DNA from: a phage
DNA: 64,000 nucleotides
Assembly: GCA_024790105.1 (NCBI GenBank)
Contig: GCA_024790105.1_3053.1
Strand: one strand, 5' to 3'
Shown here: positions 1 to 19,769 of the stretch, in pieces
How positions within the stretch are numbered: position 1 is the stretch's first letter
Layout: each line of letters opens with the position of its first letter
Translations under genes and position numbers: made by a program
The notes under the pieces: model-generated
Seen by the model: only the letters and a program-made list of their open reading frames with translations
Told to the model about the DNA's origin: nothing
Databases searched by the model: none

Positions 1-278
1 TCAGGAGCATTTTCCTGTGCATATAAAGTTGCTGCATTTGAAATAATATCCTGAGCTTCACCAGTAATGATTAATCCATCACCAGATTTCTCCACCAGGC
101 CTTTTTTAATCAATACCCCAATATTACTATTAACTACTGCATTACCTAAATCTGGATGCACCTCACGAACTTCTGCAGCTGTAATGAAATCTTTCTTAGC
201 AATAGTAATTAAAATTGCAGCGGTTTTTTCATTCAGAACATCGTTAGAAGCTTTGATGATGTAAGTTACTTTAGACAT
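1..278 (-). CDS. motA: MotA middle-transcription activator, N-terminal part (3' end lies beyond window start)
   Basis: ATG at 278-276; frame open to position 1; translation MSKVTYIIKASNDVLNEKTAAILITIAKKDF... recognised as MotA N-terminal domain; early promoter cassette immediately upstream. Confidence 0.75.
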   Translation of the reverse strand, partial: MSKVTYIIKASNDVLNEKTAAILITIAKKDFITAAEVREVHPDLGNAVVNSNIGVLIKKGLVEKSGDGLIITGEAQDIISNAATLYAQENAP

Positions 279-11643: not shown

Positions 11644-12057
11644 TTATTCCTTAAAGTGAGCTTTCAACATCTGATACAAGGACCATGCTTGTTCATTATT
11701 TTCAATAGTAACTTTCATTACCGGGAATTCAGATGGTTCAGTTACTGGTGCAGGGTCTTCCTGCTCTTCAGCAGCCTGATATGGATTTTCCACTTCATTA
11801 AAGAACTCGGCTTCGTTGCTAGAAAGCCAGATAAAGTTTTCATCAAGGATATCACCGCCTGTTGCGTATCTAACCATGCCAGTAGATGTCACAATTTTAG
11901 TAGGACGCCCGTAATAGTCAACATCTAAAATTTTAAAAGGTTCCATACCTAAACGCCGCGCATAGATTCCGTTATCAGTATGGTCTTTAATAAAATTTTC
12001 TTGAGCTTGTTTATTTTTAAATTGATACCATTTATTAACTTCAAATTTAATAGCCAT
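11644..12057 (-). CDS. hypothetical protein (137 aa), goF position
   Basis: ATG 12057 overlapping upstream stop (TAATG). Confidence 0.65.
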
Positions 12058-15316: not shown

Positions 15317-16636
15317 TCATACATAAAACACATCATAACGACCACGTGTTACACCAACATAAAGAAGCTGCTGTGCTAGTTCAGCATCTGCATAATGAAT
15401 ACAAGGCGTATAGATGAAAGCACGGTCTACAGACATACCTTGCGTCTTATGGATTGTTGATGCAGGAAGTGCTTTCACTTTACTAAATTGTGATTTAGCA
15501 TCCCAAAAATCACTCCACGGAGCTTTTCCACCTTTATTCCAATTTTTGTAAGTTTCTGCCGTTTTACCTAAAAATAAGTTAAACTTATACAGCTCTTCAT
15601 CAGATGAAATTATTTTAATCTTTTCACGATAATATTCATCATCGCCGTAAGTTTCTACTGTTAAATCCCAATGACGAATTAAGTATTCTCCAGAAACACC
15701 ACGAGCTTTAACAAAGGTTGATGTATACTCTGCTTCTATAATACGAACTAATTGTCCGTTATTAAAAATAATTTCTGACACAGGCTTTCCATCAATTTTA
15801 TATGTTTTAATTAATGGTTCCTGCATTACAATAATTTCACCGACAATAAAATCTTTATCAGTTTCAAAAATCTTTTTACGAATAATGCTATTTAACTTGT
15901 CAACAGATTTATTCGTAAATGCCATTACGCGATTTTCAAATAAATCATCTAGTGATTTGACGATTGAAAAATAATTTACCATAAAATCGCGTAAAGCGGT
16001 ATCACCGGTAAATCCACGTACTCCATGCCCGTCAACAACTTTATCATAAATCCACTTACCGTTGCGAACATCAGTAGCTACATCAATAATAGGAGCATTA
16101 CTGCGTTTAACTTCAGTAAGTTCACACTGATAAAAATCTTTGTGTGTAAAGAATGGACTGATATAAGCAGTATTTTCTCCTGGATCAACAGGTCTAATTT
16201 GCTTATTATCACCTATTCCAATTATAGTACACCAGGGTGGAATAGTTGAAAGCAGAATTTTAAATAGCTTTCTATCATACATTGACACTTCGTCGCAGAT
16301 TAATACCCTGCATTTAGCTAAATCTGGTACTTCCTTCTGTTCAAAAAGAACATTTTCTTCATATGTTACTGGGTTAATTTTAAGAATACTATGAATAGTA
16401 CTCGCTTCTTTCCCCGACAGTTTTGAAAGAATCTTTTTAGCTGCATGTGTAGGAGCTGCTAAAATAATACCAGTTTCACCCGTAGATATTAAAGCTTCAA
16501 TGATGAACTTGGTAAGAGTAGTCTTACCAGTACCAGCAGGTCCATTAATAGTTACATGATGTTTCTTTTCTTTAATAGCCCTCATAACAATGTTAAAGGC
16601 ATTTTTCTGGCCTTCGGTCAAATCATCAAATGTCAT
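15317..16636 (-). CDS. dda: Dda DNA helicase (SF1)
   Basis: 439 aa, Walker A GPAGTGKT; ATG 16636. Confidence 0.95.
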   Translation of the reverse strand: MTFDDLTEGQKNAFNIVMRAIKEKKHHVTINGPAGTGKTTLTKFIIEALISTGETGIILAAPTHAAKKILSKLSGKEASTIHSILKINPVTYEENVLFEQKEVPDLAKCRVLICDEVSMYDRKLFKILLSTIPPWCTIIGIGDNKQIRPVDPGENTAYISPFFTHKDFYQCELTEVKRSNAPIIDVATDVRNGKWIYDKVVDGHGVRGFTGDTALRDFMVNYFSIVKSLDDLFENRVMAFTNKSVDKLNSIIRKKIFETDKDFIVGEIIVMQEPLIKTYKIDGKPVSEIIFNNGQLVRIIEAEYTSTFVKARGVSGEYLIRHWDLTVETYGDDEYYREKIKIISSDEELYKFNLFLGKTAETYKNWNKGGKAPWSDFWDAKSQFSKVKALPASTIHKTQGMSVDRAFIYTPCIHYADAELAQQLLYVGVTRGRYDVFYV

Positions 16637-16944
16637 CGTAAATTCCCTGCAATTGGTATACTAACAATACGCCCAGTATCTAAAATTCGCTGATATAATC
16701 TTTGTGTGTCTACATCAGGCTTAACATGTTTAACTTCTATTTTATTAAACCAAAATTTACGTGGAGTCTCAACTAATCTTGGAATTCCCTTACCTAAAGC
16801 TAGTTGATACTGCTCTTTAAGAGTGGTAAATACTTTATCAGCAATCTCCCTTTCAAAAAATACAGCAGGACGATGTTCATCAAGCGGAACTGGCGCCGTA
16901 AATCCGTCTTTGTCTCGGTAAACTATCGCATATACATAAACCAT
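16633..16944 (-). CDS. hypothetical protein (103 aa)
   Basis: ATG 16944 with GAGGATAAT SD; ATGA overlap with dda. Confidence 0.65.
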   Translation of the reverse strand: MVYVYAIVYRDKDGFTAPVPLDEHRPAVFFEREIADKVFTTLKEQYQLALGKGIPRLVETPRKFWFNKIEVKHVKPDVDTQRLYQRILDTGRIVSIPIAGNLR

Positions 16945-16945
16945 A

Positions 16946-17692
16946 TTATCCTCGGATAAGTTTAAAAATTGAACAATTCAGCGGGTATCCTCTTTTCAGT
17001 TTAAGTTTATCAATAAAAGACAAGTTTTGATACCGCTCTACACCTTGAATAATTTTATCACACATGTCATATTGCATTTCTGCTTCTGACAACTTTTTCA
17101 CAGTTTTCCAATCCGAGCCTTTAAGAAGAACGTTCAATTTAACAACTTCAGCGCCTTCTGCTATACGAGAACCATCAATACGAGCTTTAAGTGCTATAAT
17201 CGTTAGCTTAACGTCAGAAGTTTGTTTTGATTTAGAAAGCTGAGAAATGTGTTCAATTCGATTTTCACGTTTTTTCTGTATAGCTTTAATTTGATTATAA
17301 GTCTTTTTGATTTTAGCCCATTTCTTTTCATCTAAATTTAGTTTATGAACTTTTTTCGCAGATGAACGACCAATTCGCAAAGCAAATAAATCACGCTTTT
17401 CAATCAACTCTTCTAAAGTATAATCAGAACGAAATGTATTATACTTTTTCTTTACTGCAATAACATTCCCTTTAATGTATCCAACGTTATTATCAAAACG
17501 TTCTAATGATAATTTCTCTCCTTCAATACGATTATCAAAAGGTTCTCCCGAGTAAGCACAAACTTTTTGGTCTAAAATATTCTTAATGTAATTGAAGTCT
17601 AAGTTAAAATCTTTAGAACGTCTTTTTGCAGATGCCTGAGTATGCTCTAGACGACGTTTAATTTTACGAATTTGGTTATTAGACAGCTTCAT
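16946..17692 (-). CDS. hypothetical basic protein (248 aa), Srd position
   Basis: ATG 17692 with GAGAAAAAT SD. Confidence 0.65.
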   Translation of the reverse strand: MKLSNNQIRKIKRRLEHTQASAKRRSKDFNLDFNYIKNILDQKVCAYSGEPFDNRIEGEKLSLERFDNNVGYIKGNVIAVKKKYNTFRSDYTLEELIEKRDLFALRIGRSSAKKVHKLNLDEKKWAKIKKTYNQIKAIQKKRENRIEHISQLSKSKQTSDVKLTIIALKARIDGSRIAEGAEVVKLNVLLKGSDWKTVKKLSEAEMQYDMCDKIIQGVERYQNLSFIDKLKLKRGYPLNCSIFKLIRG

Positions 17693-17730
17693 ATTTTTCT
17701 CACATCTTACGGACGATTTAATACTTTATT

Positions 17731-17760
17731 ACTATAACATTTTTACCTTAACTTGTAAAC
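17731..17760 (-). promoter_or_regulatory. early promoter
   Basis: GTTTAC 17760-17755, -10 TGTTATAGT. Confidence 0.5.
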
Positions 17761-17773
17761 AACTTTATGTAAA

Positions 17774-17800
17774 AATGCTTTAAAAATTTCATGGTATAAT
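17774..17800 (+). promoter_or_regulatory. MotA-box middle-promoter-like element on plus strand, antisense to modA
   Basis: aaTGCTTTA (17776-17782), 12-nt spacer, TATAAT (17795-17800) on plus strand. Confidence 0.35.
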
Positions 17801-17817
17801 GAATCTAAGTCCTTCCA

Positions 17818-18420
17818 TTATAGATTAAATCTTTCAAAATCAAGAGTATAGATAGTGTATGTTGAATACTTTTTGTACTCATATCTATCTGCAATTCTAA
17901 ATACACTTCCAGCTGGTATCATTACTTCTTGTTCATCTGAAACTAATTCCATATTACGATAACGATGGCTATCCGGAAACTTAAAGTTTGGATTGTATTC
18001 TTTACAGCGTAGAGCTTTTATAGCATACTCCTGGAAATTGAATACCATAGGAGCTTTGAATTCAAAAATAACTTGTGTGTTATACTCTAAACCGGAAGCA
18101 AAATGTAGAGCTATATTTTTATCATATGAAGCTGATACGACTTTATCAAATATAATAATATCAATTCCTTGATTTAACACTTGCTTAGTCTCGACTGGAA
18201 CACCTCTCCAAAGAGGTTTATCGTTTGGAACCAAACGAGATTTGATTATTTCATTTAACCAAGTATGGTCATCTGGCTTATTGGTAATACAATGAATTAA
18301 AAGTTCAATTTCAGATAAATTAAACCCTTCAGAAAGCAATTCTTCACGAATAGAAGCACGCACCGATGCATCCATTGATTTTATTTTAAAATCTTTTAGT
18401 TGCATTACTGAGTATTTCAT
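17818..18420 (-). CDS. modA: ADP-ribosyltransferase ModA
   Basis: 200 aa; ATG 18420 overlapping modB stop; length and position. Confidence 0.8.
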   Translation of the reverse strand: MKYSVMQLKDFKIKSMDASVRASIREELLSEGFNLSEIELLIHCITNKPDDHTWLNEIIKSRLVPNDKPLWRGVPVETKQVLNQGIDIIIFDKVVSASYDKNIALHFASGLEYNTQVIFEFKAPMVFNFQEYAIKALRCKEYNPNFKFPDSHRYRNMELVSDEQEVMIPAGSVFRIADRYEYKKYSTYTIYTLDFERFNL

Positions 18421-19040
18421 TCAACTACCTCAATATCATAAACTTTAAATGTTCCAAATGAATCGTGTAATTTTTCTTTTGAAATAGAAGTTATTTTATA
18501 CTTTCCAATTGGAATCATCCATTCTTGTTCACGCACAATCATCATTAAGTTATCAGTACGCTCTGAATCTAGCCCATCAGTATCTTCATACGTGTACTTG
18601 AACTCAGTATTAGGAGAAGAAAGTATAATATCGCTGATATGGTCAGAGTAATTAAAAGCTTTATCAGTTTTTAAACGAAATATTATTTCAGTGAAATACT
18701 CAACATAAGAAAAAGAACATGCTGTGTGCAAACTAGTAGTAAATGAATCTACCCTGTTCGTTGAAAACACTTCTCCAACTTGTAAATCTTTAATGAGCTC
18801 TTTTGTCGATTTTGATATACCACGATATAACTGATAAGGCGATTTAGTTAAATGCTTTTTAATGATTTTATTCAACTGTCTGTGAAGAGCTTCATTCTTT
18901 TTGGCTTCCATACATTGCCAAAGAATTGACTGTTCAAAGTCAGTAAATTTTTCACAAACCTTTTTATACATATCATATTGAAAATCAACGCTTTCAGCTT
19001 TTATAGATAACTGTTCAACATCTGCAAGATTAATAATCAT
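18417..19040 (-). CDS. modB: ADP-ribosyltransferase ModB
   Basis: 207 aa; ATG 19040 with GGAGG SD. Confidence 0.8.
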   Translation of the reverse strand: MIINLADVEQLSIKAESVDFQYDMYKKVCEKFTDFEQSILWQCMEAKKNEALHRQLNKIIKKHLTKSPYQLYRGISKSTKELIKDLQVGEVFSTNRVDSFTTSLHTACSFSYVEYFTEIIFRLKTDKAFNYSDHISDIILSSPNTEFKYTYEDTDGLDSERTDNLMMIVREQEWMIPIGKYKITSISKEKLHDSFGTFKVYDIEVVE

Positions 19041-19065
19041 GATAGCCTCCGTATACTTCAGAAGC

Positions 19066-19096
19066 TATCATATCATCGTTAAAAAGGAAAGTAAAC
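19066..19096 (-). promoter_or_regulatory. early promoter
   Basis: GTTTAC 19096-19091, -10 TGATATGAT. Confidence 0.5.
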
Positions 19097-19298: not shown

Positions 19299-19769
19299 CT
19301 AGCGATAAAAACCAAAGTGACGATTAGCTTCAACAATCTTTCTTTCTTCTTCAGACATTCTCCAGCGTAGTCCAACATCAAAATGAGCCCAGACCATCCT
19401 AACAAATGCATTTATATCTTTAATATCTTCAATAATGAATGTTTTACTTTTAGAAGGTTGACTCGCTAATTTAACTTTATCGTCTTCAAACATGTCAAAA
19501 AGACCATATTCATGAGCTCTTTTATAGCCTTTAATAGTTAAAGCTTCAGAAGAAGAAAACGGTGAATCAGTATTCTGCAAAATATCTTCAGTATGCTTTA
19601 TAATTAGAATAATATTTTCTGGATATTTTCTTTCTTTTATATCTTTAATTAAAATATCCGGATTTTCTGCTAAAGGAATAATTAACGAGCATTTTTTATC
19701 AAGTGTATTTACTGATTTACCTTCTTTGGACATAAATTCTATTGAATAGTGTTTTGCTACTTCAATCAT
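19299..19769 (-). CDS. hypothetical protein (156 aa)
   Basis: ATG 19769 with AAGGAAAT SD. Confidence 0.65.

Follow-up and report, generated by a model that had tools for sequence, protein, structure and literature searches.

T4 middle promoters are normally seen as switching on genes of replication and nucleotide metabolism, which raises the question of what a promoter of this type would do where it opposes every gene around it. Such a case is found in a 64,000-nucleotide (nt) stretch of phage DNA (contig GCA_024790105.1_3053.1 of GenBank assembly GCA_024790105.1; hereafter the window, meaning the whole stretch analysed). A middle-promoter-like element with a MotA box, AATGCTTTAAAAATTTCATGGTATAAT, occupies plus-strand positions 17774-17800 between srd and modA and points antisense into modA, the gene for an RNA polymerase ADP-ribosyltransferase (ART). 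The window comes from a Tequatrovirus, with 98-99% identity to RB3, RB32 and similar phages and ~97% identity to T4 over srd-modB. Taken as one combined statement in its general form, we give a probability of about 0.6 to the reading that the element is a genuine sigma-appropriation promoter directed antisense into modA and probably modB. For the parts of this reading we judge separately that the site is very probably an active promoter, and that an antisense or occlusion function of the kind set out below is a tentative proposal with somewhat less than even odds. The other explanations considered are, in order, an element of the gene strand, a roadblock at the level of DNA, a trans-acting small RNA, an R-loop replication origin and a silent chance match.

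The published middle-promoter consensus is (a/t)(a/t)(a/t)TGCTTtA, a gap of 12 +/- 1 base pairs (bp) and TAtaaT (Hinton 2010, PMC2988021). We found that the element agrees throughout with this consensus and its spacing, having aaaTGCTTTA before and TATAAT after a spacer of 12 nt. The first-pass annotation, which had read the plus strand as aaTGCTTTA, a 12-nt spacer and TATAAT lying 18 bp from the 3' end of modA, therefore reads the sequence correctly; the TATAAT ends 18 bp before the modA stop codon, which is on the minus strand. An additional feature absent from that annotation is an extended -10 sequence, TGG, at the end of the spacer. At a 17-bp spacing the -35 position reads aaaatg (17772-17777), and a generic sigma70 promoter scan did not return the site. 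The site thus has no sigma70 -35 hexamer, as expected for middle promoters, in which the MotA box replaces it. The activator itself is encoded by the phage, since the N-terminal 92 amino acids of MotA are found at window 3-278; asiA lies outside the window, and in T4 it is present next to the corresponding region. With all sequence features present, optimal spacing and MotA encoded, the earlier proposal of a MotA-type, middle-promoter-like element antisense to modA is supported.

The same annotation held that the element has no plus-strand open reading frame (ORF) downstream. This agrees with our finding that no credible plus-strand ORF follows it; the only candidates are mechanical ORFs of 35 amino acids (GTG start) and 59 amino acids (TTG start), neither of which has a ribosome-binding site. 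Two other coding possibilities were rejected. A small gene-strand ORF beginning at an ATG inside the spacer is not conserved, as it has 14 codons in the window and 8 in T4 and the ends differ. An antisense peptide in Karamvirus was considered on account of a Shine-Dalgarno-like AAGGAG at the predicted 5' end of the RNA, which is not followed by a start codon.

The chance expectation for the motif was obtained from Markov simulations that preserve dinucleotide content and is stated per 64 kilobases (kb), both strands together. TGCTTTA-N11-13-TATAAT matches once in the window where 0.063 matches are expected, and for the exact form WWTGCTTTA-N12-TATAAT the expectation is 0.017. For the looser published consensus, WWTGCTTNA-N11-13-TANNNT, the expectation is 2.2 and 10 matches were found, seven on the gene strand and three on the plus strand. 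Two other loose MotA-box matches on the plus strand, at window positions 19592 and 38868, have poor -10 hexamers (TATTTT and TATATT) and are near chance expectation. As a separate observation, the late-promoter motif TATAAATA is depleted in the window, with 4 matches (21676, minus; 39767, plus; 52810, minus; 62312, minus) where 9.9 are expected; four or more were obtained in 98 of 100 shuffles.

Within the genus the element is nearly invariant. When 11 Tequatrovirus genomes were aligned (T4, T2, PST, fPS-90, HY03, CAM-21 and others), no base varied in the box, the -10 hexamer or the next 40 bases; two spacer bases were the only variable positions, and the nearby srd leader has insertions and deletions. 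Nucleotide diversity over 17750-17840 was 0.010-0.023 among 18 distinct Tequatrovirus sequences, as low as that of the flanking coding DNA. The T4 copy lies at 11864-11890, with a predicted plus-strand start near 11897.

The DNA between the ART gene and srd is unalignable between genera, yet the antisense-oriented motif TGCTTT-N12-14-TATAATG recurs there. We found it in Mosigvirus (RB69, with a spacer of 13 nt, and moha), Gaprivervirus (VR26 and TH54, with the deviant box cGCTTTT), Dhakavirus (MX01), Karamvirus (EnA02 and CkP1), Winklervirus (LC53), Gelderlandvirus (S16), Jiaodavirus (LAL003) and Marfavirus (MY02), and also in the Acinetobacter phage Minot (Twarogvirinae), where it sits upstream of srd in a long intergenic region. 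An alignment of Srd proteins was used to seed a search of IMG/VR, which gave 80 loci (loci are numbered with L here and below). The motif is present in antisense orientation at 42 of the IMG/VR loci, namely every one with a full-length Srd of ~35% identity or more (L154-L189, L192, L198-L200, L202, L203), and no gene-strand copy was found in the IMG/VR loci from this search. The IMG/VR loci and the other loci together hold 36 distinct sequence variants. Two Acinetobacter-type loci carry variant forms: Acj9 (L204) has TATAATGGGTCC without a well-spaced box, and Acj61 (L207) has GCTTTA-N12-TATATT. A pattern scan of IMG/VR with TGCTTTN{13,16}TATAATGNNT returned at least 120 unrelated loci, was uninformative and was replaced by the Srd-seeded search; among the loci listed by that scan there was no ModA, ModB or clear Srd, and a single weak Srd-like match of 89 amino acids (L049).

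Base conservation was counted in 18 lineage representatives. GCTT and TATAATG are present in all 18, and the T on either side of GCTT is kept in 17. The two G's before TATAAT are found in 16 and 15 representatives, and at the remaining spacer positions the commonest base occurs in 5-12 of the 18. Beyond the -10 hexamer, the A at the predicted +1 and the G two bases after it are each kept in 16 of 18, and the T nine positions after the first T of TATAAT is invariant. The spacer is 12-13 nt long across lineages and 14 nt in the Acinetobacter phages, and its sequence is free. Thus ~15 lineages of two subfamilies, over which Srd has diverged to 30-40% identity, keep the two-part motif together with its spacing and antisense orientation. 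Blocks that are fixed and agree with the promoter consensus of the phage itself, with a spacer between them that is constrained in length and free in sequence, are by this comparison the signature of a promoter recognised by protein and not of chance.

We found that the element occurs in lineages that encode its presumed activator. A tblastn search detected MotA in 1,143 phage records, covering Escherichia, Klebsiella, Enterobacter, Serratia, Aeromonas and Acinetobacter phages, and the element-bearing lineages have MotA for the IMG/VR contigs in which both genes could be looked up by contig name. The MotA of LC53 is 50% identical to that of T4. In Gaprivervirus MotA is only 33% identical to the T4 protein, and this genus has the one deviant box. 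Krischvirus keeps the ART-srd synteny without the element, and has a plain TTGACA-type promoter in the 62-nt spacer; RB49, the type of the Krischvirus group, has neither MotA nor middle promoters (Nolan 2006, PMC1524935).

One copy of the element has appeared in print. In RB69 a middle promoter was predicted by hidden Markov model (HMM) as Pm:12081, on the plus strand, with a 1-bp insertion and a score of 7.9, in a supplementary table (Nolan et al. 2006, PMC1524935). This is the orthologous element between srd and modA of RB69. The entry in Additional file 4 is a bare HMM match, with no comment there on antisense orientation or conservation and no experiment. For T4, 58 mapped middle promoters are listed with start coordinates (Table 1 of Hinton 2010, PMC2988021). 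A dRNA-seq preprint (10.1101/2024.04.04.588121) reports 150 T4 start sites, of which 22 are antisense. Literature searches returned nothing relevant on cap-selective start-site mapping in T4 or on T4 antisense or small RNAs.

Several points weigh against the element being a promoter that is used as we propose. The Serratia PS2-like loci (L195 and L196) lack it although PS2 encodes MotA, and it is also missing from L197 and L201, putative members of the Aeromonas group; for that group the data are thinner, and Aeromonas phage 25 has MotA. The presence of MotA was checked for part of the contigs only, and the seeded MotA search was incomplete, missing the divergent MotA of Dhakavirus and Gaprivervirus, a gap partly mended by tblastn and taxonomy. 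In the Tevenvirinae, terminator scans gave no conserved terminator or RNA structure that would define a product. Some consensus matches reportedly gave no transcript in the work of Stoskiene et al. 2007. The T4 copy, with its predicted start at ~11897 on the plus strand, is not among the 58 mapped promoters, and none is listed between Pdda.1 (11138) and P56/69 (16813) (PMC2988021). Good consensus matches can be silent in T4, which is stated for GATT-type boxes (PMC2988021).

The last two points, together with the AT-rich DNA, are what favours a silent chance match without function, a possibility that the first-pass annotation had itself raised. Against it, about 0.06 matches are expected per 64 kb, and the motif recurs in ~15 lineages of two subfamilies in spite of spacer turnover. 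We consider this explanation barely credible, and as pure chance it is untenable given the conservation across genera.

The minus strand carries all the annotated genes around the element. Their positions, those of the parts of the element and those of the nearby gene-strand signals are collected in Table 1. Pfam did not recognise ModA or ModB.

Table 1. Features at and around the antisense element, in window coordinates.
Feature	Position	Strand	Remarks
MotA box aaTGCTTTA	17774-17782	plus	extra A at 17773 extends it to aaaTGCTTTA; centred near -30 of the predicted start
12-nt spacer	17783-17794	plus	final three bases TGG (17792-17794) form the extended -10 (TGn)
sigma70 -10 hexamer TATAAT	17795-17800	plus	
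Discriminator and initial transcribed block gaatctAagtccttcca	17801-17817	plus	
Predicted start	A17807 (+/-1)	plus	10 nt before the modA stop codon; placed by the usual 7-nt distance after the -10
Predicted antisense transcript	17807-19040	plus	would run across modA, perhaps modB
srd early promoter	GTTTAC 17760-17755; 17-18 nt spacer; TATAGT 17736-17731	minus	annotated as a predicted early promoter in phage fPS-90
Gene-strand TATAAT	17817-17822	minus	overlaps the modA stop; faces the antisense -10 with 16 nt between; weak TTGATT 15 nt upstream
modA stop codon	17818-17820	minus	
modA (RNA polymerase ADP-ribosyltransferase)	17818-18420	minus	antisense promoter aimed into it
modB	18417-19040	minus	upstream of modA in the same early transcription unit
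srd	16946-17692	minus	next gene downstream of modA on the gene strand
dda.1	16633-16944	minus	
dda	15317-16636	minus	
motA, 5' part	3-278	minus	first 92 amino acids, 98.9% identical to T4 MotA; cut by the window edge

The nearest gene-strand signal is the early promoter of srd, which in the window stands back to back with the element, 13 bp separating the early -35 hexamer from the MotA box. This arrangement bears on the explanation that the conserved sequence serves the gene strand, as an UP element of the srd promoter, as part of the 3' untranslated region of the ART mRNA, or as a feature of the srd or dmd leader such as a protein-binding or processing site, the likeness to a MotA site being coincidental. 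The gene-strand RNA at issue would read CCAUUAUACC...AAAGCA. Consistent with this explanation, the MotA box falls at ~-50 to -58 of the srd early promoter, in the distal UP-element zone; in the Karam-type genera the element is found in the transcribed srd leader, only a few bases separating the box from the Shine-Dalgarno sequence of srd; immediately 5' of the element there is a CCUU block with complementarity to this Shine-Dalgarno sequence; and conservation extends to the block downstream of TATAAT, more than a promoter by itself would need.

The position of the element relative to the early promoter argues against a single role of this kind. The early promoter is downstream of the element in Tequatrovirus, Mosigvirus and Dhakavirus and upstream of it in Karamvirus, Winklervirus and Gelderlandvirus, where it comes right after the ART stop codon. 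An UP element would hold a fixed position at -40 to -60 in all lineages, and in these last three genera the element lies downstream of the early start. Because its relative position flips between genera, the element is not an UP element of the srd early promoter, and one UP-element role cannot cover all cases; its conservation is independent of that promoter. Even in the window the TATAAT, at ~-70 to -75 relative to the srd promoter, is outside any UP element. In Marfavirus dmd, with an early promoter of its own, is inserted before srd and the element stays at the 3' end of the ART gene, so that the downstream neighbour in MY02 is dmd and not srd. We found no conserved fold of the gene-strand RNA by RNAalifold in eight alignable lineages (-0.57 kcal/mol), and Rfam had no match, either for the window region or for six related loci. 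The conserved blocks fall precisely on the phage promoter consensus, at the required spacing of 12-14 nt and with a free spacer. Thus we regard a gene-strand role as an unlikely source of the conservation.

Some features of the intergenic DNA were seen in passing. The gene-strand TATAAT that overlaps the modA stop is possibly a remnant of the early promoter located there in Karamvirus, Gelderlandvirus and Winklervirus. The srd 5' leader reads cttacggacg on the plus strand at window 17707-17716, which is CGUCCGUAAG on the gene strand. The gene-strand motif at this place, CGUCCGUAAGA(U/C)G, is kept in the srd leader of T4, T2, RB69, VR26 and MX01 and occurs inside the antisense promoter spacer in the Jiaodavirus LAL003; the motif might fold into a hairpin of 4 bp, with CGUAA as its loop, immediately before the ribosome-binding site of srd. 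In the Klebsiella phage MY02 (L028, 751-942) the dmd gene (discriminator of mRNA degradation) found between the ART gene and srd is a rearrangement relative to the order in T4. Both the modB start codon and a GGAGG Shine-Dalgarno sequence are enclosed in a 14-bp hairpin, UAUGAUAGCUUCUGAAGUAUACGGAGGCUAUCAUG, on the minus strand at window 19038-19072. Since no T-run follows it, the hairpin resembles a structure for translational control or a RegB target more than a terminator.

The face that the two promoters turn to each other differs between genera, and in each arrangement they share DNA. In the Enterobacter phage EnA02 the early promoter, TTTACA-17-TAGAAT (L023, 895-923), has its -10 hexamer at 918-923 and the antisense -10 hexamer is at 937-942. 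The two -10 hexamers (within L023, 895-942) are thus face to face, 13-14 bp apart, with coinciding predicted starts, and the same layout is seen in L024, L025 and L029. Since they share DNA, the element and the srd early promoter should be mutually exclusive; the overlap would involve the UP zone in the window and the core promoter in Karam-type phages.

This geometry, back to back in the window, where the MotA box is 13 bp from the early -35, and face to face in EnA02, is also what would be expected if the element acted at the level of DNA. MotA and AsiA-modified polymerase would then form an occluder or roadblock that shuts the srd early promoter or stops read-through from modB-modA into srd, and any RNA would be a by-product. 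The lack of a conserved terminator or fold in the downstream RNA of the Tevenvirinae fits such a role. Several findings point the other way. The full promoter, including the start-site region, is conserved and not the MotA site alone; a discrete conserved RNA follows the promoter in Acinetobacter phages; and MY02 has no early promoter adjoining the element. In addition, the affinity of MotA alone for DNA is low, the dissociation constant being 100-600 nM (PMC2988021). A pure roadblock is therefore, in our view, rather unlikely, and an antisense promoter remains the reading that we prefer.

If the element is an antisense promoter, the nature of its product would differ between the two subfamilies. 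In the Tevenvirinae the predicted transcript enters the ART gene directly, in antisense. The only intrinsic-terminator-like hairpins on the plus strand are weak ones inside modA (18202-18217 and 18221-18238), ~395-430 nt after the predicted start, and they are formed by codons of the conserved ModA motif PLWRG. The first of them is also found in T4 and not in other genera. The downstream plus strand is untranslated and modestly C-rich relative to G, and Rho-dependent termination of the antisense transcript would be plausible.

In the Acinetobacter phages (Minot, L030, minus strand from ~743; L200; L203) the gene upstream codes for a Macro domain instead of an ART, and after the promoter comes a conserved structured RNA of 137-171 nt. 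This RNA has GC-rich hairpins, one stem of which is kept through a change of loop, and a bidirectional terminator at its end; its folding z-scores are -2.1 and -3.4. It has no match to an Rfam family, and ARAGORN found no tRNA-like gene in it. A conserved structured RNA after the promoter argues that the promoter is used in these phages, and the RNA looks like a discrete small RNA gene, for which it is a candidate.

The Acinetobacter RNA raises the question of whether the product is a trans-acting small RNA throughout, its functional part being a conserved 5' segment and the overlap with modA being incidental in the Tevenvirinae. In line with this, several genera share a semi-conserved 5' block (GGUUCUACC-like), and the Acinetobacter RNA resembles a defined small RNA in its length, hairpins, terminator and z-scores. 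In the Tevenvirinae, by contrast, no terminator is present within several hundred bases and the downstream sequence is ART coding DNA that is unalignable between genera, and no Rfam family was matched. We consider a trans-acting small RNA quite improbable as the general explanation.

A non-coding transcript from a MotA-dependent promoter would also suit an R-loop replication origin of the oriF or oriG type, in which such a promoter is combined with an AT-rich unwinding element. The T4 origins oriF (uvsY) and oriG (34) have exactly this MotA-type promoter, and their transcript has a non-coding role as R-loop primer (PMC3016281). The transcript predicted here likewise has no coding role, and its first 60 bases are 73% A+T against 66% for the window, a slight enrichment. 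Unlike oriF and oriG, the element has no evident downstream unwinding element, and oriF doubles as the uvsY promoter whereas the element has no sense gene. The mapped T4 origins are oriA, C, E, F and G, with none reported at 11.9 kb (PMC3016281). That the element might be the known oriA was rejected, as soc is a small reading frame near oriA in a figure legend and the origin is attributed to "a nearby MotA-dependent promoter", another one than the element (PMC3016281). An origin at this site is thus very improbable. From the T4 gene order we estimate that soc would be ~3 kb from the element, and we take the oriA promoter to be the gene 69/56 promoter listed at 16813.

We return to the antisense promoter and to what it might do. 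The steps that follow are drawn from established T4 biology, not from data on this site. After infection AsiA would remodel region 4 of sigma70, MotA would bind the box at 17774-17782, and sigma70 regions 2 and 3 would bind TGgTATAAT at 17792-17800. RNA polymerase would then start at about A17807 and transcribe the plus strand. The RNA would remain untranslated, would be able to pair with the early modB-modA mRNA at its 3' end and would probably cover all of modA. Because the TGn motif is present, low-level firing may be possible before MotA accumulates. The purpose, we infer, would be to help end the expression of the early ADP-ribosyltransferase, which is toxic, once middle mode begins. This could be achieved by antisense pairing followed by degradation, or by head-on interference with polymerases that have started at the early promoter of modB. 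The bound polymerase and MotA would in addition occupy DNA on which the adjacent early promoter of srd depends. The mechanism that shuts off early expression has yet to be settled (PMC2988021).

A broader and still tentative reading, to which we give less than even odds, is that a MotA-activated promoter placed tail-on to an early ART gene is an ancient module of T4-like phages whose non-coding transcript, a discrete structured small RNA in the Acinetobacter phages, enforces the early-to-middle switch. The module would both silence the mRNA of the toxic ART and displace the early promoter beside it. If this is true, it would be the first functionally dedicated antisense or small RNA output of sigma appropriation, and a gene-less antisense middle promoter kept in two subfamilies would mean that sigma appropriation also turns early functions off. 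ModA is highly toxic and its expression window is short, so that an antisense brake would be a simple and testable explanation. The site is intergenic, and therefore point mutations in it alter no protein. The version found in Acinetobacter phages offers a candidate phage small RNA with defined ends.

Of the known systems, the element is closest to the T4 middle promoters that depend on MotA and AsiA, such as PuvsX and PrIIB2, with which it shares a box at -30, a spacer of 12 +/- 1, a -10 hexamer, the optional TGn and the absence of a -35 hexamer. It differs from the mapped members in that it opposes all the surrounding genes and has no ORF to express, and its dependence on MotA and AsiA is predicted. 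Phages also make cis-antisense RNAs, among them lambda OOP against cII and P22 sar against ant, and antisense transcription of T4 gene 32 is known; the last is cited as reference 149 in PMC2988021. Like these, the element would be a promoter dedicated to an RNA complementary to the gene at whose 3' side it lies, with timed shut-off of an early function as the proposed outcome. The OOP, sar and gene 32 RNAs have been detected, most of them with defined ends, whereas the element is known from its promoter sequence. A further difference is the promoter class, as sigma appropriation would tie the antisense RNA to the early-to-middle switch.

Overlapping promoters that face toward or away from each other serve as switches in coliphage 186 (pR/pL) and in lambda (PR/PRM). 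As in these switches, two promoters share DNA here, one early and one middle, standing back to back or, in Karam-type phages, face to face. Unlike them, the driver would be the remodelling of sigma70 by AsiA and MotA and not a repressor, and the proposed interference is read from geometry only. The class to which the promoter would belong is well known; this member of it is experimentally unmapped, and what sets it apart is that it is antisense, matches the consensus perfectly and is deeply conserved.

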